Shown in pieces: positions 2,666 through 25,589 of a DNA stretch of 56,613 nucleotides. Location of the stretch: positions 1 to 56,613 of the IMG/VR virus record IMGVR_UViG_3300023106_000013. One strand, 5' to 3'. Numbering within the stretch: position 1 is the stretch's first letter; each line of letters opens with the position of its first letter. Origin of the DNA: a virus. Lineage: Duplodnaviria > Caudoviricetes. The notes below the pieces were generated by a model that made no database searches, was not told the origin of the DNA, and saw nothing but the letters and a program-made list of their open reading frames with translations. Made by a program: the position numbers and the translations under genes.

Positions 2666-2668
2666 GTC

Positions 2669-5641: not shown

Positions 5642-5769
5642 ACGAACCTCACTGCATATTGCCCGAACTTGATAAGCCCGTAGGCCGCTGCGATCACGAG
5701 ACTACGCATAAAAACCCACATACCTATTGCGCGGAGCTTTTCGCCGTCTGAGAGCGAATGTTTGTCCAT
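5638..5769 (-). CDS. Small membrane protein (43 aa)
   Basis: [43 protein letters not shown]; coupled to both neighbours. Confidence 0.5.
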   Translation of the reverse strand: MDKHSLSDGEKLRAIGMWVFMRSLVIAAAYGLIKFGQYAVRFV

Positions 5770-6775: not shown

Positions 6776-6784
6776 TGCACTCTC

Positions 6785-8013: not shown

Positions 8014-8189
8014 TAGGTAGCCTCCCCCATGAGATAGTTGCCGTTATCGTCGGTGAGGTAAACGCCGTTATCGTCCGTGAGAAGAGCCATGCCGGGAGGA
8101 ATGGACGGAACAGCGCCGCCTAAAATGCCAGGATAAGCCAGCCTCACATTAAGCATAAGCCCGCGACGGCCTTTGGTCTTAACGCTCAT
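8013..8189 (-). CDS. Small protein (58 aa) with LTDDNGxYL repeat, absent from ORF track
   Basis: MSVKTKGRRG...LLTDDNGVYLTDDNGNYLMGEAT*; overlaps portal end, TAATG-coupled downstream. Confidence 0.65.
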   Translation of the reverse strand: MSVKTKGRRGLMLNVRLAYPGILGGAVPSIPPGMALLTDDNGVYLTDDNGNYLMGEAT

Positions 8190-11034: not shown

Positions 11035-11093
11035 TGGTCCACCTATGTCGAACGATTGAATCCTTTTACCACGCGTTTGACGAACGAACAAGG

Positions 11094-11133
11094 CAAACAA
11101 AAGCCCCGTCACCGGGGGATGGCAACGGGGCTC
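11094..11133 (-). terminator. Intrinsic terminator
   Basis: - strand agccccgt...acggggct followed by tttgttt; conserved in copy 2. Confidence 0.7.
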
Positions 11134-11160
11134 TAGGAGGTCAAGAAGCAGAGGAGACGA

Positions 11161-11442
11161 TTACTTATCGTTCTTCTTCTCGTCCTTGTCAACGGGTTCA
11201 TCGGCGCTATCATCACCATGCGCGGCCTGTTCTGCAAAGCCGTACTGGTTTGGATTAAGCTCAACGTGGAACTTGCCCAGATTTGGCTTCTGTCCCTGTT
11301 GGTTCTTCATCCGCTTGTTGGCCTCGTCAGCTTCGTACTGCTCGACCTTGCGGCGGTCTGCGTCGGAAATGTCTGAGGGCAGTGTGGAAAGATCGCCGGG
11401 GATGTAGCCACCAGCTTTGAGGTCTTCGATGAACTTGGTCAT
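11161..11442 (-). CDS. Hypothetical protein (93 aa)
   Basis: Protein identical in both copies despite nucleotide changes. Confidence 0.8.
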   Translation of the reverse strand: MTKFIEDLKAGGYIPGDLSTLPSDISDADRRKVEQYEADEANKRMKNQQGQKPNLGKFHVELNPNQYGFAEQAAHGDDSADEPVDKDEKKNDK

Positions 11443-11473
11443 GACACAGTTCTCCTTGGGTTTGGGTAACGTC

Positions 11474-11713
11474 CTAGAAAGGAGTTAGTTCGATCACATC
11501 ATCAAACTCTGTCCATTGGTCGTAATGAGCTGGCAACAGAATACCGCCATCCCGCGAATAGAACCCTCCCTGCGATGTGATAGGCTTTCCCCCTATGTTC
11601 ATTTCATAGGGGTCTTTCCAGCTTACCCTATTAACCCTGAATGGGGACGAATTCTCACGCGCAATAATCATTCTGTCCTTTGGTGCAGACGACATTGACT
11701 TCCATTCGTTCAT
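11474..11713 (-). CDS. DUF551-like small protein (strain A only)
   Basis: EWKSMSSAPKD start; ATGA overlap with terL stop. Confidence 0.6.
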   Translation of the reverse strand: MNEWKSMSSAPKDRMIIARENSSPFRVNRVSWKDPYEMNIGGKPITSQGGFYSRDGGILLPAHYDQWTEFDDVIELTPF

Positions 11714-13290
11714 ATCCGTCTCCCGCCCTTCTTCGTTCTCTTGCGCTCTTCGTATGTTGGAACCCTGGATTTACCGTAGTTCTCAGGGGCTATGACTTCC
11801 GCTGGCGCTGGCAATGGCTTACCGGCCAGCATCCGGTCAATCAACTGACCAACCAACCCCAAGGCGTCAACCTGATCGTCATGGACGCCAACGGGGAAAC
11901 TCATCATCTCACTAATCAGGTCTGAGATAAAGGGCGCATCCTTGTGAATGTAGAGGCCACGCGTTGCAATCAACCCACGGAATGACTGCGCACGAATGGC
12001 CTTGTCGCCTCTGGTGGGGAACTGCTCTCTTGCCACGTAAGCCCCACGGCTAAGCTGCGCTCTGGTTAGGAATGGGCCAACGCCGGATTTGATCTGCCCT
12101 GTTTCCTCAGCCCAGCCTATCGGAGCCCATTTCAACACTAGATCACAGAACGCCTCAACCCATACATCAGAGCTTGCCTGCGCCCGCCATAGATCGAGGA
12201 GCCAAGGCTTCCCCTCTGGATCAAGGCCAACAGCCGCGTGGACCGTATAATCACCACCGTCGCTTGTCACAGCATAGTCAGAGCCGCCATAGACGCGCAT
12301 AGACGCTCTATCGGGCAGGCTGTCGGCTAGGTGTATCCATTCGCGTTTGAAATAGTCGCCGGTGTCGGGGGATGGACGCTGTTGAAACAAGGCCGACCAT
12401 GTGCGCGGCAATCTCTCAAACTTAGCCCAATGGCTTGCGGGAAACCACTCAGGCCAGATGTAATCGCCAATCTCACGGCCTAGAGGATCATCGGACCGCT
12501 CACACTTAGCCGCAAGGCAAATGACTTCCCAATCTTCACCATCACGGCCCCGGATAATGCCGCTCTCACCTGCATAGTTCTCCGGCAGGATTGAGCCGCT
12601 GAGGTCGCCATTGTGCCAGCGGGTGTTGATGATGATAAGCGATCCTCCAGGCTTGAGTCGCGTTAGAACGCTTTCCTCATACTCGGCAATGGTCCGCTCT
12701 CGAATAACCTCACTGTCCGCATCTTGACGGCCCTTGAACGGATCATCCACCACAACGCAGTCAGCTCGGTTGCCGGTAATGCCAGACAGAATACCGCCTG
12801 ACATATACTCAGAGCCATTGCCCAATGCCCACTCGTCAGCAGCAGAGCTTTCAGCGGACAAGCCAGTGCCGAACAGCGTGGTATATTTGGGCTGCTTGAT
12901 GATCGAGCGAGTTCGCCGCCCAAACTTGCGGGCCATGTCCGAACCGTAGGACACGCCAATCATGCGGTAGTTTGGTATCTTGCCCATGATCCATGAGGGA
13001 GCAACGACAGAGCCGTATGTGGACTTTGCACTACCGGGCGGCATGAGCAGCATGAGCCTGCCGTTGGGCTTCTCAATGCACCGCTGAATAGCGTCTAGGG
13101 CTAGGATGTGATGTTCAGCTAGTTCCGTCTCAACATGGGCGTTAGCCGTGTCGGAGTTTTCGTCTTGCTCGACTAGAGGCGCACCTGGAACATCAATGTA
13201 CCGTGCATACTCAGTTAAGCTGCGACGGGCTCGGCGGCGTCTCAGTAGCTCCTGCGCTGCTTCCTGCTGCGATGGCTTCAAGTTCATCAT
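11710..13290 (-). CDS. terL: Terminase large subunit
   Basis: Walker A MPPGSAKST, Walker B VVVDDP, NTRWH, nuclease acidic motifs GSDYA and HDDQVDA. Confidence 0.95.
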   Translation of the reverse strand: MMNLKPSQQEAAQELLRRRRARRSLTEYARYIDVPGAPLVEQDENSDTANAHVETELAEHHILALDAIQRCIEKPNGRLMLLMPPGSAKSTYGSVVAPSWIMGKIPNYRMIGVSYGSDMARKFGRRTRSIIKQPKYTTLFGTGLSAESSAADEWALGNGSEYMSGGILSGITGNRADCVVVDDPFKGRQDADSEVIRERTIAEYEESVLTRLKPGGSLIIINTRWHNGDLSGSILPENYAGESGIIRGRDGEDWEVICLAAKCERSDDPLGREIGDYIWPEWFPASHWAKFERLPRTWSALFQQRPSPDTGDYFKREWIHLADSLPDRASMRVYGGSDYAVTSDGGDYTVHAAVGLDPEGKPWLLDLWRAQASSDVWVEAFCDLVLKWAPIGWAEETGQIKSGVGPFLTRAQLSRGAYVAREQFPTRGDKAIRAQSFRGLIATRGLYIHKDAPFISDLISEMMSFPVGVHDDQVDALGLVGQLIDRMLAGKPLPAPAEVIAPENYGKSRVPTYEERKRTKKGGRRI

Positions 13291-13681: not shown

Positions 13682-13875
13682 TTCTTCACCTGAGCAAGCG
13701 CCGCAAGAGCCATGGCCTTGGTTTCCTTATCTCCATCAAACGTCATACGACAGCTTGGGTGCCACAAATCGTCAATGTAAGACCCGAACACGATAGCATC
13801 TTCCTCAATGCGCTGTTCGTGCCTGATCACTGTTGCGCCACTCATCCATACGATAAATTTTTCATCAGCCATCAT
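13678..13875 (-). CDS. Hypothetical protein
   Basis: RBS aggagg before MMADEKF. Confidence 0.5.
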   Translation of the reverse strand: MMADEKFIVWMSGATVIRHEQRIEEDAIVFGSYIDDLWHPSCRMTFDGDKETKAMALAALAQVKK

Positions 13876-13876
13876 C

Positions 13877-14104
13877 TCATCCCTCCTTTGTCTGATTGAT
13901 CTTGGGGTTGGAGGCTCCAGCAAGGAATGGTCCAGAATAATATCGGGCTACAGCGCCTGATGGGTATTGCCAATTATCCCCAGAGCCGCCGCAGTCCTTG
14001 CATTCTTCAGGCTTCTTTACTCCGTAGCTCCAACACGGCACCTGTCCATGGCCATCGCACGTTTGGCATTTAATGGCCTTCCCGGTTATATCGCTCATGC
14101 TCAT
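13877..14104 (-). CDS. Small DnaJ-type Zn-finger protein
   Basis: CQTCDGHG and CKDCGGSG motifs. Confidence 0.6.
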   Translation of the reverse strand: MSMSDITGKAIKCQTCDGHGQVPCWSYGVKKPEECKDCGGSGDNWQYPSGAVARYYSGPFLAGASNPKINQTKEG

Positions 14105-14131
14105 TCTCTCTCTATTTGGGTAGTGATGGGG

Positions 14132-14293
14132 TTAGGTGCCTATCTTCTCGACTTGATATCCCAGTCCCTCTAAGCGCGGGATAAGGTCATTCTGATATTT
14201 GTCTCTGTCCAGTTTATTCCCAGACTCATCACGAGCAATCCAATAATATGGCGCTGCGTCCTCTCGCTTGATGGTGGCCTTCTTATCGCTCAT
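14132..14293 (-). CDS. Small hypothetical protein (53 aa)
   Basis: MSDKKATIKREDAAPYYWIARDESG...; RBS gaggag. Confidence 0.5.
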   Translation of the reverse strand: MSDKKATIKREDAAPYYWIARDESGNKLDRDKYQNDLIPRLEGLGYQVEKIGT

Positions 14294-14305
14294 CTCTGCT
14301 CTCCT

Positions 14306-14578
14306 CTATTGGTTGGCTTTGGAACGGATGGCGTCCGCTGCGGCGCAAGTTCCTGCTAACCAATGGGGCGTTTCGTGGTCATGCCGAACTGTCTCAGCTA
14401 TCTTAGCGCATTCCTCGTAAGCTTGGGAGCGGGCTTGGAGGATGGCATAGGAAATGTATTCATCAATCTCCCTCTCTATTTGAGAGGCATATGGCTCGCC
14501 TATTTTTGGGTCAAATATTGAAACCCTTGCTCCTAGCCACAACCGATCCACTTTCACACCATATGGCTTATTTTTCAT
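14306..14578 (-). CDS. Hypothetical protein
   Basis: YEECAKIAE...AADAIR motif common in phage accessory ORFs. Confidence 0.6.
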   Translation of the reverse strand: MKNKPYGVKVDRLWLGARVSIFDPKIGEPYASQIEREIDEYISYAILQARSQAYEECAKIAETVRHDHETPHWLAGTCAAADAIRSKANQ

Positions 14579-15101
14579 TCTTGTTTTCCCCTAGAGTGGC
14601 GATAAAGGCTTTGGCGGCATGCCATTCTGCTCGGCCTGCGTCTTCAGAGCAAACCCCTTCCAGCACCTTCACTGCTTCGGATAGACGGGCTTGGGATGCG
14701 TTAGCGCGGGTAACAGCGTGTTTCACGGCGAGCGGTAAGCCCTCAATCATTCCCGAGCTATCAGGTCCAAGATGGGCTGAACACTGGTGAATGCATCCAG
14801 CTTGTCGGTAGTTGGATTCTATTGCAAGATCACGCTCCTTCTCAAGGGTAGCGATACGTGCGGCTTGCTCCTCTATGAGGGTGTTGGAGGCGTCGTCTTG
14901 CTTCCGATCATTCCACGCCTGAGACGCAGCCAACTTCGATTCGCACCATCCTATTGGATAATTGTTTCTGCCATGACAGTGGCAATCAAGACAGAACACA
15001 TGCCATGCATAGAGCATGACGGGCTTATCTTCTGATTCGTCCTGCCTGAATACAAGGTCAGCCCCTCCGCAAAACGGGCACGGCTTTAGTTCCTCACTCA
15101 T
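14568..15101 (-). CDS. Lar (restriction alleviation)-family Zn-ribbon protein with C-terminal extension
   Basis: MSEELKPCPFCGG...CLDC...AASQAWNDR. Confidence 0.7.
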   Translation of the reverse strand: MSEELKPCPFCGGADLVFRQDESEDKPVMLYAWHVFCLDCHCHGRNNYPIGWCESKLAASQAWNDRKQDDASNTLIEEQAARIATLEKERDLAIESNYRQAGCIHQCSAHLGPDSSGMIEGLPLAVKHAVTRANASQARLSEAVKVLEGVCSEDAGRAEWHAAKAFIATLGENKNEK

Positions 15102-15547
15102 TCCTCGTTCCTCTCTTCTGTGGTGGTTTGGATAGAGGGCTTGGGACGACGAAGGATACCCCTGCGGTGTTCGCGCATATACTCGCGCATCCAAGCCTTC
15201 TTATCGAATTTGGGTGCCGGAGCTGGGGTCGAACCAGCGTTGATGGCGTCAAAGGCCACTGTCCTGCCATTAGACGATCCGGCATTAGTATCGACGGCCT
15301 CTATGCTTCCCACCGGTTTGACCCCTTTCGGGTCGGCCTGTTTCCCCGTCAACAGCGCCGTCGATTGTGTATGGACCTCTTTTCGAGGCGGCAATGCTGA
15401 CACATCACTCTTTGGCGTAACCGGCCTGTCAGGGCTTGGAGTGCCTATCCTAACTTTGGTGAGACGATCAGGCCTCCACCCGACTGGCTTCTTAGGGCAG
15501 TCGAGCCAATTATGGGCGGGGCTTTTGCAGTACTCACAATTCTTCAT
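15098..15547 (-). CDS. Zn-knuckle / basic-helix protein (149 aa) containing an in-frame tRNA
   Basis: CEYC-x4-H-x4-C N-terminus and FDKKAWMREYMREHRR C-terminal motif; homologous to 56240..56515. Confidence 0.7.
   Translation of the reverse strand: MKNCEYCKSPAHNWLDCPKKPVGWRPDRLTKVRIGTPSPDRPVTPKSDVSALPPRKEVHTQSTALLTGKQADPKGVKPVGSIEAVDTNAGSSNGRTVAFDAINAGSTPAPAPKFDKKAWMREYMREHRRGILRRPKPSIQTTTEERNEE
15211..15284 (-). tRNA. tRNA-Gln (anticodon TTG) with encoded CCA
   Basis: TGCCGGA TC GTC-TAATGGCAG-GAC A GTGGC-CTTTGAC-GCCAT CAAC GCTGG-TTCGACC-CCAGC TCCGGCA C CCA: full cloverleaf, 74 nt, U1-A72. Confidence 0.93.
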
Positions 15548-15583
15548 GTCCGTAAGAGTACACGAATCTTATGCGTAAGACAA
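15548..15583 (-). promoter_or_regulatory. Sigma70-like promoter for a leaderless mRNA with overlapping repeats
   Basis: TTGTCT-N17-TACTCT-N7-ATG; TCTTACG twice and pseudo-palindrome CTTACGCATAAG. Confidence 0.6.
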
Positions 15584-15589
15584 GAACTA

Positions 15590-15630
15590 TAAACAGAAAC
15601 CCCCGACATGATCAGTGCCGAGGGTTTCCG
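15590..15630 (-). terminator. Intrinsic terminator upstream of the tRNA-containing gene
   Basis: - strand gaaaccctcggca...tgtcgggggtttc followed by tgttt. Confidence 0.65.
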
Positions 15631-15699
15631 GGGGAGGAGATGAGCAGAACGCAAGAGGAGGGGCTTGCATCATCTTTATGCGTGGTTTGTTGGGTTAGG

Positions 15700-15903
15700 T
15701 CAAGTGGGCTTTGGAGGCAATGGAGGGCCGGAATATGGCAAAGGGCAGCTTTTCCCCACATCAGCAGCCTTTTCATCGGAGGTGAAGCTTTCTCGGGTTA
15801 TCCCGCATTCGTGCATTCCACCAGAATAGTAATGACAATGAGGGCAATCAGCGCACCTGTGGATGAAAGTCTGGATTACGCGGGCCGGGCTATATGCGCT
15901 CAT
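15700..15903 (-). CDS. Small Cys-rich protein
   Basis: CADCPHC...ECG...SCPL. Confidence 0.55.
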   Translation of the reverse strand: MSAYSPARVIQTFIHRCADCPHCHYYSGGMHECGITRESFTSDEKAADVGKSCPLPYSGPPLPPKPT

Positions 15904-16055
15904 TCTGTCTCGCCTTCTTGTTGGGATTTGGCTTTGGAGAGGGATTGGAGGCCTAGCCGAGCCCAATAAGCCTCACGCGCAATGCGCACCCACGGGGCAT
16001 AGTACCAGCCAAATATTCGCGCCCGGTCCTCGTCCGTCAGCTTCACCCCGCTCAC
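15900..16055 (-). CDS. Small hypothetical protein
   Basis: GTGA/ATGA coupled to both neighbours, RBS ggaga. Confidence 0.45.
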   Translation of the reverse strand: MSGVKLTDEDRARIFGWYYAPWVRIAREAYWARLGLQSLSKAKSQQEGETE

Positions 16056-16600
16056 TTCGTCTCTCCTTGAAGGGCGGCGGTTAGGACGGATCGAGCAAGC
16101 AGAGACGGAGGCCCAGCTACCCATGGCTCTGTTCGAAAAGACTGTTCAATGGTTGCATGAGCCGCATCCACCATCGCATCCGTTATCTCAATGGGGGCGG
16201 GGCGGGCGAATATAGATGTTGCGACCTTTCCGCAGTCGGCACCGCTCGCGTGGCAACGAGGGCAATATACGTCGCTGTCGTCACCGCCGCTGTCGGTCCC
16301 GCATGCCTCGGAAGAGCCCACCCACCCACATGTGTCGCATGAGGCCAAATAGTAGGGCTCGCGGACTTCAAACGACACGATTGGGCCGCTGTATTTTGCC
16401 ATCTGTTTGAGGTCTTCCAAGCGGTGTTCCTCAGGCGTCATCGCAGCCACTGCCTCACTCACCCCCGCTTGGCTGCGAAGGGATTGGAGTTCACGAAGGG
16501 CAATCAAAATGTCTGGTACATGCCCAGAATACGTTTCGCCCCATTCATCGATTTGACTTGCCACCCTCTCTAGCTGTTCGTTGCTAATGGTAGCCATCAC
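16052..16600 (-). CDS. Ead/Ea22-like accessory protein with Zn ribbon
   Basis: ELQSLR coil; CDTCGWVGSSEAC...CPRC; EITDAMVDAA motif. Confidence 0.6.
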   Translation of the reverse strand: MMATISNEQLERVASQIDEWGETYSGHVPDILIALRELQSLRSQAGVSEAVAAMTPEEHRLEDLKQMAKYSGPIVSFEVREPYYLASCDTCGWVGSSEACGTDSGGDDSDVYCPRCHASGADCGKVATSIFARPAPIEITDAMVDAAHATIEQSFRTEPWVAGPPSLLARSVLTAALQGETK

Positions 16601-17025
16601 TCTGCCCCTTTAAGATTTGCGAGGAAGGAACGCGCAGCGCGCAAATCACCGATATGAAACGGGCTGTTCCACGCCACATTGCCGCTGTCGTTATCTGGAG
16701 GGTCATATCTGGCAGCCTGCTCGGCAAACGGCGCCAGCACCTTCGCCGCCTCGTCCAGCTTTGCCTCTGCTGTGGTGGCACGATCCCGGAATTGACGACA
16801 TGCTTCGACCTTTGCGGCATAAGCCGGTGCTGCCACCCAATCATTGTCCAGAGCAGCATCCCGCTCTTTCCTCAGCCTTTCGTTCTCGGCGCGGAGAGAT
16901 TGTAATTCCAGCACAATTGCATGAATATCAACGGTAGGTAGTCCAGCCTGCCAACCAATGTCTGGCGGGCTAACACGATTTAGAATTTCAACCAACCGCT
17001 GATCACTGACATTGCTCATAGCCAA
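16597..17025 (-). CDS. Ead/Ea22-like coiled-coil accessory protein
   Basis: ELQSLRAENERLRKERD; VLAPFA; GDLRAAR. Confidence 0.6.
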   Translation of the reverse strand: MAMSNVSDQRLVEILNRVSPPDIGWQAGLPTVDIHAIVLELQSLRAENERLRKERDAALDNDWVAAPAYAAKVEACRQFRDRATTAEAKLDEAAKVLAPFAEQAARYDPPDNDSGNVAWNSPFHIGDLRAARSFLANLKGAE

Positions 17026-17264
17026 ATCTCCTCACCTGTCTCAGAACATGCTCTGACACGGAATATTGCATAGCATGCAGGCTTTGTGGGCTCGACATGA
17101 ACCGGCACTACAATAGGCTTGGGTGTTGGTGTGTCAGGCTGGATTAGAAGGCTCTGACGATGTTCGTAGGCTTCTCGTGATGCCGCGCCGGGGTTGATCA
17201 GGTCTTGGATGTTGCTGGCCGCTAGGAATGGGGAGAGGCTTAGAATGAGGATTGTACGGATCAT
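17016..17264 (-). CDS. Hypothetical protein with signal-peptide-like N-terminus
   Basis: MIRTILILSLSPFLAAS; ATGA coupling. Confidence 0.5.
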   Translation of the reverse strand: MIRTILILSLSPFLAASNIQDLINPGAASREAYEHRQSLLIQPDTPTPKPIVVPVHVEPTKPACYAIFRVRACSETGEEIWL

Positions 17265-17494
17265 TTGGACCGCGCCTCTAGCATAGCATCGGCCAATTTG
17301 TATGCGTCCTGCGCCATGCTCTCATGCGTAGCTACCTCTGGCGCGAGCCGAACAAATACCTCAATCACTGCGCCTATGGCTTGCCCTGCGAACCAATCCC
17401 TCAACGTCATTCCTTGGTTGGCATGCAGACCGCTATCCGATCCACCCTCAGCTGGAAATGCTGGTCCGCCGTCATTCTTCGTTTCGTCTGTCAT
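17261..17494 (-). CDS. Conserved phage protein of the GGPAFP/GMTLRDWFAGQA family
   Basis: NDGGPAFP...GMTLRDWFAGQA...AYKLADAMLEAR. Confidence 0.8.
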   Translation of the reverse strand: MTDETKNDGGPAFPAEGGSDSGLHANQGMTLRDWFAGQAIGAVIEVFVRLAPEVATHESMAQDAYKLADAMLEARSK

Positions 17495-17523
17495 CTGATC
17501 CTCCAAGATCGTTTTGTTTTAGG

Positions 17524-17757
17524 TTAGGTGGTTGGCTGGGGAGGTTGAAGGTAAACCTTGCGCAGTGCGTAGGCATGCACTTCGGGCCAATTCACCTTTT
17601 GCGGGTGCTCCAAAGCCTCTTTCTCGGTGCGGAAGGCAAAGGTGTGCGCATCAGGCCAAATCGATAAAACTGGAACATCAGCCCGATTCCCACGTTCCTC
17701 CGTTGTCAGATAGCACCATACCCAAATCGGCTCATTCATCGTTAAGCCCTCGGTCAT
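17524..17757 (-). CDS. Hypothetical protein
   Basis: 77 aa ORF in operon orientation. Confidence 0.5.
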   Translation of the reverse strand: MTEGLTMNEPIWVWCYLTTEERGNRADVPVLSIWPDAHTFAFRTEKEALEHPQKVNWPEVHAYALRKVYLQPPQPTT

Positions 17758-17778
17758 CTCTCTACTCTCTCGTTGTGT

Positions 17779-17994
17779 TTAGTTGGGCTTGGGAATGGGT
17801 GTGAAAACCGTCTCGCGGTTAAACCCCATAGTCATCGCCATAGAGCGACTTACTGACCTGCGACCGTTCAGAACATCGCTTACGAATGACTCGTTGATCT
17901 TGTTCTTCTTAGCCCAAGCTTTCTGACCGCCTGCCTCCTCGCATTCATACTTCAGACGATGGATGATTTCTTTTTCTGTAATTGCCATATACAA
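17779..17994 (-). CDS. Cro-like HTH regulator
   Basis: GGQKAWAKKNKINESFVSDVLNGRR. Confidence 0.75.
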   Translation of the reverse strand: MYMAITEKEIIHRLKYECEEAGGQKAWAKKNKINESFVSDVLNGRRSVSRSMAMTMGFNRETVFTPIPKPN

Positions 17995-18012
17995 TTCCCC
18001 TTGTTCACAAAT

Positions 18013-18041
18013 ATACTAACCGCACCATCCTTATCCGTCAA
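18013..18041 (-). promoter_or_regulatory. Sigma70-like promoter
   Basis: TTGACG-N17-TAGTAT upstream of the HTH gene. Confidence 0.6.
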
Positions 18042-18571
18042 CACCCTTCTTGCTCTGTCGGCAACTTCTCCCAAACACCCATAGCTCTACACGTAGCCCG
18101 AACCTTGGGAATTGTCGCGCCGGTCACAAGGCTGATATTCAATGCGCTATTCCCCGCCATGGCTAGCTGGAATATCCACCTGTTACGCTTGCTTGCGCGA
18201 ACCCCTGAGGGTCTTTCCGTTGTTTTTGAGAGTGAGGCGCACGGACTTGTTTCCCTGGTACTTGCCATAGCCCTCCCTGCCGTCTGTGAGGCTGACGCGG
18301 ATTGGCATTGTGGTGGCGAGTTCTCTGCCCTTGCCTCCACCCCATTTGTATGGCCTGCCGAAATCAACGCGCCCGGTTTCTCCTCCATCCCCAGCGAAGG
18401 TTCTTCGGGTTTCATTGATGGTTCCGTTGATTTCAACCATTGCATGTGTCTCGTTCTGTTGAGATGATTTGTGTTATCCGTTGTGCCAATGCCGTGGGTT
18501 TGGACTGCGGTAGCGCGATCATCGGGGTTAAGTCTTAGTTCCTCACGGCGCTCTAGGATGAAGGAAATCAT
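18038..18571 (-). CDS. Hypothetical protein (frame and start uncertain)
   Basis: ATGA coupling to methylase stop; competing ORF 18183..18440. Confidence 0.3.
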   Translation of the reverse strand: MISFILERREELRLNPDDRATAVQTHGIGTTDNTNHLNRTRHMQWLKSTEPSMKPEEPSLGMEEKPGALISAGHTNGVEARAENSPPQCQSASASQTAGRAMASTRETSPCASLSKTTERPSGVRASKRNRWIFQLAMAGNSALNISLVTGATIPKVRATCRAMGVWEKLPTEQEGC

Positions 18572-19350
18572 ATTGGCCTGCTCATTTCTCCGGCTATCCG
18601 GGCGACCTGCGGATGAATGCAGTTTCCTAGCGCTTCTATTCGGTCCATCCAATTGGCAGGCCAGCCATCCACTCCCCGAAGCAGGGGTTCAGGCCAACTA
18701 TGTCCTCGCTCGAATGGATGGTCGCAGAGGTGCTGCAAATCCTCCTGGCGACCCGACCACCTTTGTCCAGTTTCGCCAATACCGAAGCCTTGGATCGATC
18801 CCTGAACTCGCTGGCCGGTAGGGTAGGCAACAATGACAACCCTTTCGCGGCGCTGGATGGAACCAACGGCGTACGCTGGTATGACTTCCCAGATTGCATC
18901 AAACCCGATCGCGGCCAACTCTGAGAGAACGACACCGAACCATTCGCCTGTGGGCTGTCCGTCAACATAAGGTCCATCAAGGAGGTCTGTGACATTTTCC
19001 AGAATGATCCTCTGGAGTCCGTCTCCAGCAAGGCCAGCAATTCGAATGATCTCAAAGAAAAGGCTGCTTCGCTCGCCTTCGAACCCGACTTGGACGCCAT
19101 GCGCTCTACCTGCCTTGCTTAGTTCCGTGCATGGGAAGCCGCCGCATATGGCTTCCGGGCGGATATACTCCACCATATCACGATCAATGTCTTTTACGTC
19201 TTTCAGGATCGGCACATTATGCCAATGCCGGTGCAGGATTCGCCAGCGGTCTTCGTTGAACTCACAGAACGCCACAGTCTCGTATAGCCCCGTAGCTTCC
19301 AAGCCCTTGCTGAATCCACCCAACCCACTGAATAGGTCTAGTAGCCTCAT
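18568..19350 (-). CDS. DNA cytosine-5 methyltransferase, large (alpha) polypeptide
   Basis: LDLFSGLGG (I), GGFPC (IV), ENV (VI), QRRERV (VIII), ALGN (X); motif IX not seen in this frame. Confidence 0.9.
   Translation of the reverse strand: MRLLDLFSGLGGFSKGLEATGLYETVAFCEFNEDRWRILHRHWHNVPILKDVKDIDRDMVEYIRPEAICGGFPCTELSKAGRAHGVQVGFEGERSSLFFEIIRIAGLAGDGLQRIILENVTDLLDGPYVDGQPTGEWFGVVLSELAAIGFDAIWEVIPAYAVGSIQRRERVVIVAYPTGQRVQGSIQGFGIGETGQRWSGRQEDLQHLCDHPFERGHSWPEPLLRGVDGWPANWMDRIEALGNCIHPQVARIAGEMSRPI
18636..19100 (-). CDS. Nested alternative-frame small (beta) polypeptide of the C5-methyltransferase; start uncertain
   Basis: WPRSGLM, LLPTLPASE and LNPCFGEWMAGLPIGWT (motif IX-like). Confidence 0.75.
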   Translation of the reverse strand: MASKSGSKASEAAFSLRSFELLALLETDSRGSFWKMSQTSLMDLMLTDSPQANGSVSFSQSWPRSGLMQSGKSYQRTPLVPSSAAKGLSLLPTLPASEFRDRSKASVLAKLDKGGRVARRICSTSATIHSSEDIVGLNPCFGEWMAGLPIGWTE

Positions 19351-19397
19351 TTACATCTTCTCTTGTTTGGATGGAGTGGGTTGGGCTTGGGAGAGGT

Positions 19398-19670
19398 TCA
19401 TTCCAGAGGCCTCACTGTCACATTCCAGCCGGAATTTTCGATGGCCTGCATTAGTGCGTTATTTCTTCGCCTGTCATCGGGCTCATCGGGAAATTGCTCC
19501 TTGAGCTTCGAATAGATAGCCCGGAATGATTTATAGATGGCTTTGGCTTCTGGGGTATCGACGGTTTGCATGATCCGAATAATCCCGTCGCCGTTAATCA
19601 TCTCCTCGTCAACTTCCTTGAAGAACCTCTTCTCAGGCTTCAGGTTTCTAGGCGGGCTAATATCTCTCAT
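19398..19670 (-). CDS. Hypothetical protein
   Basis: 90 aa; RBS and ATGA coupling. Confidence 0.55.
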   Translation of the reverse strand: MRDISPPRNLKPEKRFFKEVDEEMINGDGIIRIMQTVDTPEAKAIYKSFRAIYSKLKEQFPDEPDDRRRNNALMQAIENSGWNVTVRPLE

Positions 19671-20248
19671 CTATCCTCTCCTGCATCCATGCCGTCAGTA
19701 TCGGCGCTGTTAAACGTCTCGTATCGTAGCTTATCGATCAGGTATGAACTTACCTTTATGCCGGGAATACGTTCCTCAAACTCATGGGCATAGAAGGCGT
19801 CGTGGCGCTTGGCGTCCTCTTTGGCCCTAGCGATTTCTGCTGGCGTTTTCTGCTTTGGATCGACGGATTCAACAAACCCCTCCATCATGCTCCTTACCCT
19901 CGCCATTGCCTCTGGAGTGCGGGATTGCTCTACCTCTGCATCCTTGTCCTGAGCGATGAATTGCTGCCGCCCTGCCTCTAGAAGCCGCTGCACCTTGCCG
20001 TCATTCGCCTGCACAACTCGAATATGGGTTGATAGCTCATCGCAGCTTGGGACGAATGCACGGTTCTTTGCGTCTCGTGGAACCTGTCCGGTAATGAACT
20101 GCTCAATGCCCATGCGGACGAAATTGAAGGGGTAATAGTCCACGGCCTCTAGGTACGTATCGACCGTTGCGCGGCTTACCTTGCTCTCAGCGCCCGGATA
20201 GGCGCGGAACAGACGCAAGATCAAGGCTTCCTTGGCTTCGCGTTCCAT
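19667..20248 (-). CDS. Putative helicase loader/inhibitor (lambda P / G39P-like position)
   Basis: LFRAYP...YLEAVDYYP...FVPSCDEL pattern; follows initiator-like domain. Confidence 0.55.
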   Translation of the reverse strand: MEREAKEALILRLFRAYPGAESKVSRATVDTYLEAVDYYPFNFVRMGIEQFITGQVPRDAKNRAFVPSCDELSTHIRVVQANDGKVQRLLEAGRQQFIAQDKDAEVEQSRTPEAMARVRSMMEGFVESVDPKQKTPAEIARAKEDAKRHDAFYAHEFEERIPGIKVSSYLIDKLRYETFNSADTDGMDAGEDR

Positions 20249-20528
20249 TTCTAATCCTCTCTGCTAGGTCCTGCTCTAGGCGGTCTAGGTTGGTCATTCC
20301 CATGCTGCGCTGCTGTGTGTTCTGTACCCAGCTTGGCTCTATGGATTGCCATCCCTTTTCTATCATCATCTCAGCGGCGGCGTTGGGGTCTGGACACGCT
20401 GCCAGCTTCTTAGCCAAGAGCTTTGCTGCGAAGTCTGTCATGGGCTTTCGAAGGCGTTGGCGGTGTTTGATTAGCTCCTCCGCATGTTCCTCGTCCACGG
20501 TGGTTTCAAGCCACTGCCTTGGCGTCAT
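20187..20528 (-). CDS. Stand-alone C-terminal domain of a phage replication initiator
   Basis: LIKHRQRLRKPMTDFAAKLLAKKLAACPDPNAAAEMMIEKGWQSI resembles C-terminal domains of alphaproteobacterial phage initiators. Confidence 0.55.
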   Translation of the reverse strand: MTPRQWLETTVDEEHAEELIKHRQRLRKPMTDFAAKLLAKKLAACPDPNAAAEMMIEKGWQSIEPSWVQNTQQRSMGMTNLDRLEQDLAERIRNGTRSQGSLDLASVPRLSGR

Positions 20529-20674
20529 TCTGTTCTACCCCTTTTGGCTTTCGAGGCCGTGTCATTGCGCTTCGCTTCCGCCCTCAAGCGCTTCATGCGG
20601 TCTCGGTCATATTGCTTCTTATCAAACCCGTTAGGCGGCCTGCCCCGCCCTCGCTTTACGCTTTCTTCGCGCAT
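20525..20674 (-). CDS. AT-hook/basic-helix peptide (49 aa), absent from ORF track
   Basis: MREESVKRGRGRPPNGFDKKQYDRDRMKRLRAEAK...; ATGA-coupled to 20187..20528. Confidence 0.6.
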   Translation of the reverse strand: MREESVKRGRGRPPNGFDKKQYDRDRMKRLRAEAKRNDTASKAKRGRTE

Positions 20675-20868
20675 TGCTCTCTCATCCTCAATCGTTCCTC
20701 TAAAAAATCTTCTTGTGCGGGGGTAAGTACGTCTCCGTTGAGCCGGTCTACGGCCAACATCACAGTGGATGCGTCAACATGCCATCCTTCGGATTTTAGC
20801 TTGGCATAAAGACTTAACAGCCTTTCTATCAAATACTGCTCGATAGGAGGCGGATATAGGGGGCTCAC
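20656..20868 (-). CDS. Hypothetical protein
   Basis: 70 aa, GTGA coupling. Confidence 0.5.
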   Translation of the reverse strand: MSPLYPPPIEQYLIERLLSLYAKLKSEGWHVDASTVMLAVDRLNGDVLTPAQEDFLEERLRMREQCAKKA

Positions 20869-21116
20869 GCCCCCGCCTCCATTACGATTGAAACAATCTC
20901 GTTTGCCTGCATACCAGAAACCGCTGCGGTGAAAGCGTCACGAGCAGCCTTAGCTGCAACTTCCATTGCTTCAAGCTGGTGGCCATACGTTTCGAAGGCA
21001 TACACACCGGCTTTGGTGTAGCTCATAAACTTGAGCTTGTTTGCGTTGAAGTGGAAACGATCCCAGGCCTTTTTGTTGGCGGCTGCAAGTGCGACGATCT
21101 CGGTGCGGTTGGTCAT
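20865..21116 (-). CDS. Hypothetical protein
   Basis: 83 aa; RBS ggagag and upstream TTGCGT-N16-TAAATT. Confidence 0.6.
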   Translation of the reverse strand: MTNRTEIVALAAANKKAWDRFHFNANKLKFMSYTKAGVYAFETYGHQLEAMEVAAKAARDAFTAAVSGMQANEIVSIVMEAGA

Positions 21117-21214
21117 TTCTTCTCTCCGTTTGTGATTATTAATTTACACGACTTCTCACATAACGCAAGCATTAAAATCGACCGTCGCTCAAATAATGTT
21201 CGGATAGCTTAGGA

Positions 21215-21249
21215 TAAGAAAAACCCGCCGAGCGGGGGAGCTGGCGGGC
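21215..21249 (-). terminator. Intrinsic terminator for leftward transcription
   Basis: - strand cccgccagc-tcccc-cgctcggcggg followed by tttttctt. Confidence 0.7.
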
Positions 21250-21278
21250 TTGACTTGTGGGCTTTAGGGGCCGATTAT
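21250..21278 (+). promoter_or_regulatory. Sigma70-like promoter for candidate ncRNA 1
   Basis: TTGACT-N17-GATTAT. Confidence 0.55.
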
Positions 21279-21780
21279 GCAGAGGTCCTGAGCAAGTAAC
21301 CAGCTTCTCAGGGTGTCGGCTGGGTTTTTACCTTGGAAAGTTTCCCCTGCCGCTGAGACATAAACTAGCCGTATCTGCATTCGGTTTCAAGTCTCAATCT
21401 AAAACCTCCTGACGAGTTTTGCGGCACTCTCTCAAAGGTGTCGAAACAAAAAGTGATGGTCGGCGTGACCCATAGCCTCCATCCCCTGCACGTATCCCGG
21501 CAAAACCGGGGCTGGTCCGAACTGATAAGCCTCCTCTGGGCGTGACTTCCCAGGTAAAGCTTTGAAGGTGGTCTGCCAGATGAAAAGACCACAAGGCGGC
21601 GATACGGAATGATCGCAAGGTGCTTGCACCGAAAAGGAACTGAGTATGCGGCCTTCGGGCTTGGGCTAGTCACCCACTGCACATAAGGTTGGGCCATCCC
21701 TATACCGTGCAGGCAGAAAAGGGTTGAGCTATGTCTAAATAGTCAAGAGGCCCGCTCCGTTCATTCGTGGCGGGCCTCAT
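21277..21780 (+). ncRNA. Candidate ~500-nt structured ncRNA 1
   Basis: Long-range helices CATAGC/GCTATG and CCTGCACG/CGTGCAGG enclosing hairpins with cUUCGg and gCUUGc loops; terminal 9-bp hairpin; no credible ORF. Confidence 0.6.
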
Positions 21781-21808
21781 TGCTTCAGAGGCGTTATTGA
21801 TGTACAAT
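21780..21808 (+). promoter_or_regulatory. Sigma70-like promoter for candidate ncRNA 2
   Basis: TTGCTT-N17-TACAAT. Confidence 0.6.
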
Positions 21809-21813
21809 GTTTG

Positions 21814-22125
21814 TAAGGATGGATCGTCCGTAAAGGCAAGTTTAGCGGCGGGATATAGGCGAACTTGCAAAGCCAAGCCCGATGCGTGAATCCTTAGGGT
21901 CATCAGGACTACAGCGAGCATTGTAGTTTAAAACAGGTACGCACCCCGACCTGATAACCCCATCCAAAGCCATTGCACTAATACAGCAGTAGAGCTATTG
22001 TCGTGGCGTTAAGGGTGAAATTAGGTAGCGATGGGCGCACAAGCGTAGCAACGGTCTCCTAGTTCCCCTTAACCCCCACCCAACGGCCCGGATAGCTTAT
22101 AACAGCCTCCGGGCCTATTTGTTGG
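21814..22125 (+). ncRNA. Candidate ~310-nt structured ncRNA 2
   Basis: Consecutive helical domains with G-U pairs on + strand; ends in GGCCCGGA/TCCGGGCC hairpin followed by TATTTGTT. Confidence 0.6.
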
Positions 22126-22130
22126 TTAGG

Positions 22131-22601
22131 CTACATCAACACAATGACAGGTTTGCCGCCAAGCTTCTCGATAGCGGCGTTGAGGTGTCCTAGATGAAGC
22201 CCTGCATCAGGATCAATCCAGATCAAGCGCTCATCATCGGTGAATTTCACATCATCGAACGCAACCCAATCTGTGACTTCGGGATGGCGATGGAGCCAAT
22301 CCTTAACCGCAAGATCGCGTGGCATGTCAGGGTATTTAGTCGCTAGGTCCGTTTCATGAATATGGTCACGATCAAGGCCTTGTTTCTCTAGCGCAACGTC
22401 GATATCGTCAGTATCAATAAACGGGCGGTTATGCGTGGTATTGAATACAACCTTCGCGCCAGTCCGCTTGCAAAGCTCCTGAATGACGGCAACAGTTGTC
22501 TGCGGGAACCGCCGCTTCCAAGACGCCATGCTGTCCACGAGGAAGAAGCTCGCGGGGATCATTGGACCATCGATATCCAAGAAGATCACCTTCTCAGCCA
22601 T
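22131..22601 (-). CDS. HAD-family phosphatase (Swiss-Army-knife RNA-repair-like HAD domain)
   Basis: KVIFLDIDG...WVAFDD...IDPDAGL. Confidence 0.75.
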   Translation of the reverse strand: MAEKVIFLDIDGPMIPASFFLVDSMASWKRRFPQTTVAVIQELCKRTGAKVVFNTTHNRPFIDTDDIDVALEKQGLDRDHIHETDLATKYPDMPRDLAVKDWLHRHPEVTDWVAFDDVKFTDDERLIWIDPDAGLHLGHLNAAIEKLGGKPVIVLM

Positions 22602-22602
22602 T

Positions 22603-22875
22603 CTATTCTTCCTTCTCTGGATTGTGTGTAACCGTAGGCATGGGTTGCCAATGGGTCGGCTGGATATCTGGTTCTTTGTAGTCAGTGCCTGAATAGTCCT
22701 CCCGCTCAATAACCCGCTCACCATCCCAACTAGAACACCACTTCTTTCCGTACCATGCGATTGTCCATGGGCCATAGACGGTTGGCTTTTCCCGAAACCC
22801 GTAGTCCTTAACGAACACACCGATGATCTCCGTCCCGTCTTTCGGTGCCGTCTCAATATCCTGCCATTCGCTCAT
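22603..22875 (-). CDS. DUF551-like protein
   Basis: MSEWQDIETAPKDGTEI...PTHWQPMP. Confidence 0.8.
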   Translation of the reverse strand: MSEWQDIETAPKDGTEIIGVFVKDYGFREKPTVYGPWTIAWYGKKWCSSWDGERVIEREDYSGTDYKEPDIQPTHWQPMPTVTHNPEKEE

Positions 22876-22898
22876 TCTCGTCTCCTTTCAGCGGCTTG

Positions 22899-23468
22899 TC
22901 ATAGAGGTAGGTCTTTGACATGTTTCCAAATCTTCCCGGCCCGCACGAGCCGAATTAGGGAGCTATGGACACCGTATCGATCTGCTATCAAAATTGATGA
23001 TCCGGCTGATTTACGAATCTCCCTAACATCGTCCTCCGTAAGCTTCGAATTTTCTCGGTCCTCTCCACGCTGTTGAGTTGAATTATCCCTGAATGAGTGT
23101 TTTGGAGCATCCAGAGCTATCCCCTTCCTCAGCCTGTTCCTGATAGAGTTAGGGTGAAGTCCGTAAACCTCCGAGGCCTGCACCAGAGAAGTTCCGGGTA
23201 TGGTGTTGTTCCTCTTATTCCGGTTCTGTTCGGTTACGGTTGCCCATCGGCAGTTCTCCGGGAAGTACCCCTTTTCGTTATCGATACGGTCAATGGTGTG
23301 CTTTGGGGTGGGCTTCATTCCCATATCGCGGATGAAGTTGAGATAACTAACCCGCCATTCATCGCACACAGTGAGCCGCGCATAGTCGGCATGTTTTGGA
23401 TCATTCCCGTAAACACGATCCATCATCGAACGCCAGCTTCTGTATTCGCTAGACTGCCAAAGTTTCAT
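22899..23468 (-). CDS. HNH homing endonuclease with C-terminal HTH
   Basis: YRSWRSMM...TIDRIDNEKGYFPENCRWAT...NRNKR; SKLTEDDVREIR...WKHV. Confidence 0.85.
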   Translation of the reverse strand: MKLWQSSEYRSWRSMMDRVYGNDPKHADYARLTVCDEWRVSYLNFIRDMGMKPTPKHTIDRIDNEKGYFPENCRWATVTEQNRNKRNNTIPGTSLVQASEVYGLHPNSIRNRLRKGIALDAPKHSFRDNSTQQRGEDRENSKLTEDDVREIRKSAGSSILIADRYGVHSSLIRLVRAGKIWKHVKDLPL

Positions 23469-23847
23469 CGCCCTCGCTCCATGACTTAATGATGATTTGA
23501 ATGCCGCTGAATCCAAGGTTAGCCCACCTTACCGTTCCGCATTCGCATAGGTTGTCGTTTTCGATGACGCCGTGTTCCTGTAGAATGTCGGAAACAACCT
23601 TCTCTCGGTTCATGATATCGGACAGTTTATGACGCCGGGACCGATCGATGGTTATCTCGATGCTATAAGGCCCCGTAATCGGCTTCTGAGAGCGCATGGC
23701 GGCGTTTAGATCGTAACCGAATGCCAAGGCCCATGTTCGGTATTCAGTCGTTCTGTAACGCCCCCTGCCGCTTCCAGACTTATTGTTCGCGTAGCTCTTG
23801 TTTTGCGTAGGAGGTACGTGGGGGCTGGCGATGCGAACGACCGTCAT
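23449..23847 (-). CDS. RusA-like Holliday junction resolvase
   Basis: PPTQN...DIMNREKVVSDILQEHGVIEND. Confidence 0.7.
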   Translation of the reverse strand: MTVVRIASPHVPPTQNKSYANNKSGSGRGRYRTTEYRTWALAFGYDLNAAMRSQKPITGPYSIEITIDRSRRHKLSDIMNREKVVSDILQEHGVIENDNLCECGTVRWANLGFSGIQIIIKSWSEGDETLAV

Positions 23848-23957
23848 GACAGATACCCGAACCAGTAGAGCAGTCCGATGGTTGGGAAGATCGTTACCCA
23901 TGCGATGCAGAAGAGCACGAATAGGAGCGAGGCTAGAACAATGAGGCCGTCTACCAT
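23844..23957 (-). CDS. Small membrane protein (37 aa)
   Basis: MVDGLIVLASLLFVLFCIAWVTIFPTIGLLYWFGYLS*; coupled to both neighbours. Confidence 0.5.
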   Translation of the reverse strand: MVDGLIVLASLLFVLFCIAWVTIFPTIGLLYWFGYLS

Positions 23958-24214
23958 CACTCAACCCCATCCACGATGATCTCACAGTAGAGATCGATTT
24001 CCATCTGTAGGTTATCGGCCTGCTCTCGCTTATCGGCTGGCATGCGGGCTCGCTTCACAGCAGCATTGAAAGCTCGCGGGGAATATCCGGCGTTCTTGGC
24101 CTCTTGGTTGATCTCCCCGATATCCTCGCCTAGCGCGTCCCTTTCATCCTCCAAACGAATACGCCGGGCGGCTAGTTCGCGTAGTTCTTCGCGTGCGATG
24201 TTTGGCTTGGTCAT
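23957..24214 (-). CDS. GapR/DUF2312-family DNA-binding protein
   Basis: RIRLEDERDALGEDIGEINQEAKNAGYSPRAF...EIDLY. Confidence 0.8.
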   Translation of the reverse strand: MTKPNIAREELRELAARRIRLEDERDALGEDIGEINQEAKNAGYSPRAFNAAVKRARMPADKREQADNLQMEIDLYCEIIVDGVE

Positions 24215-24435
24215 TCGTCTAGCTCCAGTCCAATAGCTTTTGCGTCGGCACGAATTGACTCCTCATAGATGGAAAGAAGGTGGTCAACGTCCTCAGAATT
24301 TAGTAGAATGTCGTCATTGTTAAGCTTCAGGTAGCCGTTTAAGCGTGGCACTTTCTCTGTATTCGACCGCATCCGCTTAAAGCGTTCATATCGGGCATTT
24401 ATCATCAGAGCGCCGTCTAAGTCCTTGATATTCAT
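24211..24435 (-). CDS. Hypothetical protein
   Basis: MNIKDLDG..., ATGA coupling. Confidence 0.5.
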   Translation of the reverse strand: MNIKDLDGALMINARYERFKRMRSNTEKVPRLNGYLKLNNDDILLNSEDVDHLLSIYEESIRADAKAIGLELDE

Positions 24436-24523
24436 TCCCAAGCCCCTTCCTTCATATTCCAAATAAACGGTATAAGTACCAACACTAGGATAAAACACAG
24501 ACAGAGGCCGAATGTGGGGAGGG

Positions 24524-24829
24524 TCATTCTGCGTCCTCTGTGCCCACATCAGCGACAAGTTCTACCTCGTCTGGCGTCGTCCAGAACTTGTGCTCTCCCG
24601 GTCGGGTAGATGTCCAGAACACCTGATAGTCTTTGGCGGGAACCGACCGGTCTCGGACTTCGACAACGGTAGCGACGGTTCCAGCATTCCATGCCCATTC
24701 CTTCGCATCCAAGAAGCGGACCTTCTGACCAACACGCCAGAAGTCAGGCAAAGGCCTTTCATCGAAAGCCTCCTTTCTAAGCCTAGCGGCCTTTGCCTCA
24801 AGCTCCATAGCTTCAGCCAACTTGCTCAT
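24524..24829 (-). CDS. Hypothetical protein (SH3-like)
   Basis: WRVGQKVRF...GTVATVVEV; RBS ggaggag. Confidence 0.55.
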   Translation of the reverse strand: MSKLAEAMELEAKAARLRKEAFDERPLPDFWRVGQKVRFLDAKEWAWNAGTVATVVEVRDRSVPAKDYQVFWTSTRPGEHKFWTTPDEVELVADVGTEDAE

Positions 24830-25133
24830 TCGTATTCTCCTCCATGTTCGGAACCTGATCGGCAATGCGCTTGAACATTGCTACGTCCTCGGATTGTGTC
24901 TTGGTAACGAGGGGACGGAAGCGAGACAGTGAATACCCTCTTTCATGAGGCCGATCCGCCAAACCAACCAATCTCACTGTTGTGAGGCCCAAAGTCTCGC
25001 CAACCCATCGAATGGTATAAATCGCCTTATCTTCAAGGGCGAAATCACCCACTACGATTCCTGGCAAATGATTAAAGGTTCTGGGGTCAGCATCAACGCA
25101 AACTACCTTCATCCCAACCTTAGCCCATGTCAT
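24813..25133 (-). CDS. Hypothetical protein (SH3-like)
   Basis: KVGMKVVCVDA...IYTIRWV...SRFRPL. Confidence 0.6.
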   Translation of the reverse strand: MTWAKVGMKVVCVDADPRTFNHLPGIVVGDFALEDKAIYTIRWVGETLGLTTVRLVGLADRPHERGYSLSRFRPLVTKTQSEDVAMFKRIADQVPNMEENTNEQVG

Positions 25134-25291
25134 TTTGAGGCCTCCCGACGTTTCCATGCTTTCCACCCTACCACCTCATTATTGGTTCGGATGAGATGTT
25201 GCAACAGGTTCGTAGTGGTGCGCCCTTGGGCCGTTGCCATCTCTTTCACCAAGTCGTATGTTTCTTGATCAATCGTAAGCGAAGTGCGCAT
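25130..25291 (-). CDS. Ribbon-helix-helix regulator
   Basis: MRTSLTIDQETYDLVKEMATAQGRTTTNLLQHLI. Confidence 0.7.
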   Translation of the reverse strand: MRTSLTIDQETYDLVKEMATAQGRTTTNLLQHLIRTNNEVVGWKAWKRREASK

Positions 25292-25314
25292 ATTCCTGCC
25301 TTCTCGCGTTTCTG

Positions 25315-25400
25315 ATAGACCAAAACTACATCGGATAAAAACATCGGTCAAGGTGCATATTGGTGCTTGACGGTGTATATTCATTCTGTCACTCTTAACC
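25315..25400. promoter_or_regulatory. Divergent early promoter region
   Basis: Leftward TTGACC-N16-TAGTTT overlapping ACATCGG direct repeats; rightward TTGACG-N17-CACTCT; gene orientation switches here. Confidence 0.55.
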
Positions 25401-25445
25401 TACGAACAGAGCAGCGGCTCTTGGTGGAGAGTTAAGGAGATAGAG

Positions 25446-25589
25446 ATGATCGAGTTTTCAGTTTTCGTTGGAGAGAAGAAGATGGCAACGATATTCGCGT
25501 CTGGCACTCTTGAGGCTATCGACGCTTACCGTTTGCAGTCTGGGTGCGCAAAGCGAGACGTGTGGGCTATGCAATCTAAGGTGCTGTGA
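25446..25589 (+). CDS. Small early protein (47 aa)
   Basis: Strong RBS taaggag; MIEFSVFVGEKKMATIF... Confidence 0.5.
   Translation: MIEFSVFVGEKKMATIFASGTLEAIDAYRLQSGCAKRDVWAMQSKVL

Follow-up and report, generated by a model that had tools for sequence, protein, structure and literature searches.

What does a phage keep in the largest gap between its genes? The window analysed here, 56,613 nucleotides that make up a complete IMG/VR virus record, has its largest gene-free gap at 21117-22130, surrounded by minus-strand early genes. A preliminary description of the right-hand part of this gap (21780-22125, here RNA 2) proposed one structured RNA of ~310 nt that has a promoter and a terminator of its own and is placed behind another structured RNA (RNA 1). 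We regard the stretch as the right-hand part of a plus-strand "RNA island" of ~0.9 kb that lies against the minus-strand early genes. Our preferred reading, held tentatively and at slightly less than even probability, is that RNA 2 consists of two promoter-led accessory small RNA cassettes, with lineage-specific payloads that sit between conserved linkers and are exchanged by recombination in a tRNA slot. The features under discussion are collected in Table 1.

Setting of the gene-free gap

The two ends of the record are near-copies of each other (1-13217 and 43013-56179, 91-99% identical), such that the first 13.2 kb recurs at the end. Because of this recurrence the genome size is put at ~43 kb; the record would then represent about 1.3 turns of the genome, and it was probably assembled from two strains. 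The phage is uncultured and of a soil type. Against proteins of Brucella Tb-like, Rhizobium, and Microcystis phages, its capsid-like protein reaches only ~35% identity. Nearly the whole stretch is present in only 1 of the 24 sequencing runs listed, a leaf-litter metagenome that may be its source.

The gap is flanked on its right by an ORF of 241 aa with a phosphatase-type Pfam domain (HAD). A conserved linker (22594-22631) lies inside this ORF and carries AAGGAAG and an in-frame ATG at 22601, and both the Pfam domain and the ORF's relative at locus L002 begin at about residue 86-90. Judging from these positions, the HAD gene probably begins at 22601, which leaves 85 initial codons that may belong to a separate frame or to a spurious one. 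A protein search with the HAD gene returned one locus, L002, which is without the island; the same search with the 83-aa neighbour on the left returned no relatives.

Two repeated words were observed in and around the gap. The 8-mer CCAARGCC occurs 36 times in the whole window compared with 5.6 expected, a count reached by none of 100 shuffles; intergenic linkers contain some of the copies, and the mid linker contains one (21964-21971). The 11-nt word CGGATAGCTTA is repeated exactly, in direct orientation, at 21201-21211, just outside the left border linker, and again 888 nt away at 22089-22099, inside the T2 hairpin. By a rough estimate, chance alone would give ~0.1 such pairs per 1 kb. G003, the comparator genome described below, lacks the left copy.

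Table 1. Features of the gap and its neighbours, in window coordinates
Feature	Position	Strand	Basis or remark
83-aa ORF	20865-21116	minus	neighbour of gap
P1, left border linker: hairpin, then TTGACT-N17-GATTAT ahead of RNA 1	21216-21286	plus	82% identical to L005rc 610-679
Strong intrinsic terminator: GC stem + UUUUUCUU	21224-21250	minus	terminator/promoter scan; left island border
RNA 1, conserved structured RNA	21287-21744	plus	found elsewhere without RNA 2
T1 linker: RNA 1-ending hairpin, then TTGCTT (21780-21785)	21745-21795	plus	96% identical over 51 nt to L005rc 1677-1727
P2, promoter-like TTGCTT-N17-TACAAT; start expected at ~21815	21780-21808	plus	8/12 consensus positions; below scan threshold
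TTGCTT / TACAAT, spacer 17	21780 / 21803	plus	position check
Payload 2a: weakly folded 5' part (21812-21898), 3' 64-nt hairpin domain (21897-21960)	21809-21959	plus	
TAAGGAT / ATCCTTA	21814 / 21890	plus	position check
GCAAGTTT / GAACTTGC	21836 / 21861	plus	position check
GGGTCATCAGG / CCTGATAACCC, one mismatch	21897 / 21950	plus	position check
GACTACA / TGTAGTT	21907 / 21922	plus	position check
Mid linker with P3, TTGCAC (21973)-N17-TATTGT (21996-22001); start expected at ~22008	21960-22004	plus	98% identical over 45 nt to L005rc 2018-2062
GCCAT / GTGGC	21969 / 22003	plus	position check
Payload 2b: long irregular hairpin GUGG / GUUAAGGG ... CCCUUAAC / CCAC	22003-22080	plus	z -3.73
GTTAAGGG / CCCTTAAC	22008 / 22066	plus	position check
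TTAGG / CCTAG	22021 / 22058	plus	position check
T2 linker: hairpin (22085-22092 / 22108-22115) + TATTTGTT (22116-22123)	22083-22131	plus	100% identical over 49 nt to L005rc 2220-2268
GGCCCGGA / TCCGGGCC, then TATTTGTT	22085 / 22108, 22116	plus	position check
HAD_SAK_2 phosphatase-type gene (241-aa ORF)	22131-22856	minus	Pfam HAD domain
HNH endonuclease gene	22899-23516	minus	neighbour

Conserved linkers and replaced payloads

Only one comparator genome, G003 (locus L005), carries the linkers of the window. Between 13872-25449 of the window and 13037-1753 of G003 there are ~24 collinear linkers of 31-193 nt, 82-100% identical, with unrelated genes between them, whereas identity between the structural genes of window and G003 is only 64-69%. 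Many of the shared linkers are intergenic junctions with a ribosome-binding site and a start codon. Within the island, nothing is shared with L005rc between the linkers: the payloads of the window and G003 align no better than shuffles and are unrelated.

The linkers themselves combine hairpins with promoter-like hexamers. The terminator/promoter scan lists both the P1 promoter, which is predicted to drive RNA 1, and the minus-strand terminator in the same linker, whose stem is kept in G003 with a different loop. The presence of this strong minus-strand terminator suggests that minus-strand transcription to some extent passes through the island or starts inside it. In T1, a 9-bp GC stem (21747-21755 / 21770-21778; z -4.51) is conserved between flanks that are unrelated in G003 on both sides; G003 has a single change in this stem (C to T at the 21752 position), and pairing survives it, as U-G, only if the plus strand is read. 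The TTGCTT that follows is also found in G003, where it is without a -10 partner and a separate TTGAAC-N17-TATTAT stands 14 nt further on. The mid linker carries P3 (7/12 consensus positions), and its conservation stops, in both G003 and contigs from the food metagenome X3, at the last base of the -10 hexamer. The predicted hexamer pairs of P2 and P3 both fall below the scan threshold. Loose TTGNNN-N16-18-TANNNT sites number 3 on the plus strand of the island, compared with 0.59 expected.

The T2 linker adjoins the stop codon with which the convergent gene on the minus strand ends. Its stem is 8 bp long and GC-rich (-23.1 kcal/mol, z -4.06) and is followed by UAUUUGUU; on the plus strand, 5 of the 8 tail bases are U, and the minus-strand counterpart of the tail is GUUGGGUG. 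A GC-rich hairpin directly before a U-rich tract has the form of an intrinsic terminator, here a putative one, and T2 is missing from the scan list because its loop exceeds the scan's 8-nt limit. The 3' end is thus terminator-like, and on the plus strand only, in agreement with the preliminary description.

What G003 holds between these linkers bears on both the strand and the nature of the payloads. Its slot matching 21796-21959 contains its own TTGAAC-N17-TATTAT and, 9 nt later, a tRNA in the window's plus orientation (L005rc 1764-1830, or L005 2775-2841 minus), between the T1 (1677-1727) and mid (2018-2062) linkers. This tRNA has anticodon UCC and a shortened D arm and scores 30.5 bits, just above the gathering score of 29; beside it lies a second, weaker tRNA-like element (L005 2698-2767 minus, 19.8 bits with the tRNA-Sec model). 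Neither is recognised by ARAGORN. In G003 the place of RNA 1 is taken by a 480-nt gene-free leader (L005 3446-3925 minus, z -4.5), unrelated in sequence to RNA 1, and then by an HNH endonuclease gene (L005 2927-3445 minus, Pfam E 2e-08), which stands behind P1 in the window's plus orientation. The slot of 22005-22082 holds an unrelated, hairpin-rich sequence of 157 nt (z -2.2).

Judged by this one comparator, 21780-22130 occupies the slot of a tRNA gene on the same strand. Because the G003 slot has a promoter and a tRNA in that orientation, plus-strand RNA genes are supported, and plus is the likely sense strand of the stretch, as the preliminary description had assumed. The window's own slot is different. 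With an ARAGORN cloverleaf or an RF00005 score of at least 29 bits taken as the sign of a tRNA, 21780-22130 contains none, nor does it have a match to the tRNA clan at E <= 10. ARAGORN finds only tRNA-Gln at 15211-15284 in the window, and Rfam 15 (4227 models, gathering score) finds only a tRNA at 15214-15284. At E <= 10, Rfam returned nothing credible for 20800-22500 and a single chance match of 14.4 bits for 21780-22130 alone.

Contigs from other runs break at the same joints. Three X3 contigs match the window through 22001 and then diverge from it, and the break points of X3 contigs are 22001 and 22079/22084. A single low-depth X3 contig of 123 nt matches 22012-22069 with 5 differences and 1 gap (~90%). 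Contigs show presence, not absence, and among the matches listed the bin 21832-21908 has no cover in the four runs compared. The only RNA-library contig (X24) falls, among the matches listed, in RNA 1 alone. Taken together with the slot contents of G003, the X3 breaks lead to a description of the island as a plus-strand unit in which exchangeable payloads alternate with conserved linkers.

Searches for the origin of the RNA 2 payloads returned little. No match to 21120-22130 was found by blastn in phage, plasmid, and E. coli collections, no homologue of the payload words in exact-pattern scans of viral contigs, and no copy of the mid-linker word in genome contigs. RNA 2 was not found in records G001 and G002, tblastx of RNA 2 against the genes of G003, G002, and L002 gave no remnant, and parts of 21780-22130 recur elsewhere in the window only as one 12-mer. 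Two candidate relatives were rejected: L013, which has one 18-mer match, is AT-rich with no further similarity and represents chance, and direct comparison ruled out that RNA 2 is a paralogue of RNA 1. On these searches, the payloads are orphans without a usable homologue.

RNA 1, by comparison, is a real, unclassified structured RNA of ~450 nt. The segment 21216-21771 is found at 95-99% identity in contigs of at least four other runs, with different flanks each time; four of these runs are a rhizosphere, a food, an isolate-type, and an aquatic metatranscriptome run. One X3 contig has 21286-21401 swapped for 112 other letters. A homologue at L003/L004 is 70% identical with an identical core of 38 nt, and 22 of the 85 predicted pairs in an RNAalifold consensus of RNA 1 and L003 have changed on both sides. 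In L003/L004, a ribosome-binding site and a gene come immediately after RNA 1. A contig of run X12 departs from the window after 21737, and an X3 contig carries 130 further letters there that are unmatched to the window. The core word of RNA 1 was not found in species-representative bacterial genome contigs and was found in metagenome contigs only at L004, of the same lineage as L003; a nhmmer profile of the core found nothing in G003, and RNA 1 has no Rfam match.

Folding and coding potential of the stretch

The sequence words on which the preliminary description rested are all present at the coordinates it claimed, as are its four G-U pairs, and its view of the stretch as non-coding is confirmed. 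Per-codon scores of the island's ORFs run from -0.26 to +0.05, which resembles spurious ORFs (-0.14 +/- 0.15) and not real genes (0.235 +/- 0.098). These ORFs have 0 matches to Pfam or PHROG families at E <= 0.01, and the only match up to E 1 is a weak one to a PHROG (E 0.096) for an ORF in RNA 1.

Folding is uneven along the stretch. The whole 346 nt gives z -2.82 for plus and -3.42 for minus, similar values that indicate no strand preference, and its minimum-energy fold consists of independent local domains. The 5' quarter (21812-21898), which had been described as structured, folds no better than shuffles (z -0.29 plus; 84 of 200 shuffles fold as well), and its TAAGGAT/ATCCTTA helix is missing from the minimum-energy fold of this segment but present in the centroid. 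The hairpin domain that follows (21895-21962) has z -3.28 on plus and -3.9 on minus. At 22003-22080 the plus strand is favoured, with z -3.60 to -3.73 versus -1.88 on minus. With the terminator included (22003-22122), z reaches -4.56 to -5.10 on plus and -3.3 on minus. For comparison, 204 segments of 120 nt from elsewhere in the same genome average z -0.04 (sd 1.11), the lowest being -4.56, and at z -5.10 the segment 22003-22122 outfolds every one of them. Only the last third of the stretch folds unusually well. CA-rich tracts, considered as a marker of the sense strand, did not discriminate.

Readings of the locus and known systems

Under the preferred reading of two cassettes, the stretch is probably transcribed on the plus strand. 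A host sigma-70-type RNA polymerase would start at ~21815 from P2 and at ~22008 from P3, and both transcripts would end at the T2 hairpin at ~22121. The P2 transcript, lacking a terminator of its own, would read through to T2 and measure ~307 nt. The P3 transcript of ~114 nt would comprise a long hairpin, a C-rich single strand, and the terminator, a layout typical of small RNAs. Payloads would be swapped between phages by recombination in the linkers. Several observations weigh against this reading. P2 and P3 agree with the consensus at only 8 and 7 of 12 positions, the first 85 nt at the 5' end are unstructured, and G003 makes no use of the conserved TTGCTT as a -35 element. The whole stretch and 21895-21962 fold slightly better on the minus strand, the minus-strand terminator at 21224-21250 suggests leftward transcription across the island, and the linkers are carried by a single comparator genome.

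The alternatives differ in how many RNAs the stretch encodes, on which strand, and whether it encodes any. A single ~310-nt RNA with its own promoter and terminator, switching its fold or pairing with RNA 1 via GGATGG and CCATCC, is improbable in our estimate. P2 and T2 are in place at a distance that would yield the expected length, and the four G-U pairs suit the plus strand, but the stretch is split by the conserved 45-nt mid linker with its second promoter-like site, and at least three lineages (the window, G003, and X3) differ in sequence behind that linker. Its domains are local and independent, with the 5' one at chance level, and the 3' arm of the GCCAT/GTGGC helix falls in the payload and is lost in G003. 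The proposed contact fares no better: CCATCC occurs 44 times in the window versus 39.5 expected, which is chance; the L003 homologue of RNA 1 retains 0 of the 2 CCATCC sites; the G003 unit is without GGATGG; and RNA 1 is found without RNA 2 at L003/L004 as well as in contigs of X3 and X12. Function on the minus strand, where the island would form a ~900-nt 3' UTR or read-through tail of the 22131-22856 gene, ending at 21224-21250 and antisense to RNA 1, is likewise given little weight. The strong minus-strand terminator at the far border, the minus orientation of all flanking genes, and the slightly better overall fold of that strand are what this reading would predict. Opposed to it are the position of the T2 hairpin, which on the minus strand comes immediately behind the stop codon, the plus orientation of the tRNA and HNH genes in G003, the preference of 22003-22080 for plus, and the co-orientation of RNA 1 in L003 with the gene directly following, on the strand corresponding to the window's plus. 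Least credible of all is that small proteins are encoded, on plus at 21800-21889 (29 aa) or on minus at 21700-21921 (73 aa) or 21842-21973 (43 aa). The frames are open, and GAGG lies 8 nt upstream of the ATG at 21800, but their codon scores (-0.04, +0.05, and -0.08) are those of spurious ORFs, they have no family match up to E 1, they are not conserved in G003, and the ATG at 21800 is upstream of the start predicted for P2.

It is also conceivable, if rather unlikely, that the stretch is regulatory and recombination DNA only, with hairpins as terminators or insulators, linkers as recombination joints, and payloads as filler or as scars of, for example, lost tRNA genes. The absence of the payloads from the relative and, among the matches listed, from the four runs compared, bar one low-depth 58-nt match, fits such an account, as does the unstructured 5' part. 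Moreover, ~24 linkers surround replaced genes across 13.8-25.5 kb, and replacement there is general, whatever the content. What argues against filler is the folding of 22003-22122 beyond the entire background, the hairpin-rich payload that G003 carries in the same slot, and the outcome of our searches, in which neither tRNA remnants nor traces of genes from a relative turned up. Phage genomes seldom retain 300 nt of filler. At the other extreme, and with a low probability in our view, the island may be a dedicated swap slot for RNA genes, in which conserved terminator/promoter linkers would enable phages of this lineage to exchange tRNAs, the 450-nt structured RNA, an HNH gene together with the leader before it, and small hairpin RNAs. 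The RNA 2 payloads would then be functional and lineage-specific, perhaps acting as tRNA-like decoys or mimics against RNA-targeting defences or as regulators of an anti-Shine-Dalgarno type via the C-rich 22070-22085.

For the two small RNA cassettes of the preferred reading, the closest functional analogy is with rnaC and rnaD of phage T4. In the T4 annotation, rnaC (species 1, 139 nt) and rnaD (species 2, 119 nt) lie amid eight tRNAs and the homing endonuclease gene segB. Like the putative RNA 2 cassettes, they are phage non-coding RNAs of ~110-140 nt; those of T4 are on the strand of the tRNAs, with a homing endonuclease among them. The G003 island resembles the T4 cluster in its combination of an HNH gene, a tRNA, and an unrelated structured payload. 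The likeness does not extend to sequence, with 176, 293, 283, and 175 of 300 shuffles reaching the scores observed in local alignments of RNA 2 with rnaC and rnaD. The island of the window also differs from T4 in being without a tRNA, and its phage is not T4-like. GOLLD and ROOL, the large ornate RNAs of phages and prophages, often adjoin tRNA genes. They share with RNA 2 a gene-free, highly paired sequence near, or replacing, tRNA genes; RNA 2 differs in being modular, much smaller, and without an Rfam match even at E <= 10.

The linkers recall a different system. For T4-type phages, two published accounts describe PeSL (promoter-early stem-loop) cassettes, which consist of a terminator stem-loop and a sigma-70-like promoter, border non-essential modules at which unrelated sequences are exchanged, and occur as many cassettes within hyperplastic regions (PMC2839356, PMC4122927). 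Similarly, P1, T1/P2, and the mid linker mark exchange points between the window and G003, and X3 contigs break at joints of the island as well (22001 and 22079/22084). The sequence also shows putative composites, namely a hairpin with TTGACT-N17-GATTAT, a hairpin with TTGCTT-N17-TACAAT, and TTGCAC-N17-TATTGT, the last two of which lie below the scan threshold. The linkers differ from PeSLs in that each is single-copy and position-specific, the exchanged modules include RNA genes, and the phage belongs to another lineage.

Overall, RNA 2, as an orphan, is of less interest than RNA 1 or the linker mosaic as a whole. Were the reading of the island as a dedicated swap slot true, modular shuffling of RNA genes in the manner of PeSLs would extend beyond the T4-like phages. 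If the payloads of the two cassettes are real small RNAs, they would add to the poorly understood stable RNAs of phages that accompany or replace tRNA genes, as rnaC and rnaD do in T4, and the locus would be a case, in a lineage that is not T4-like, of RNA genes exchanged as cassettes that conserved regulatory linkers enclose.
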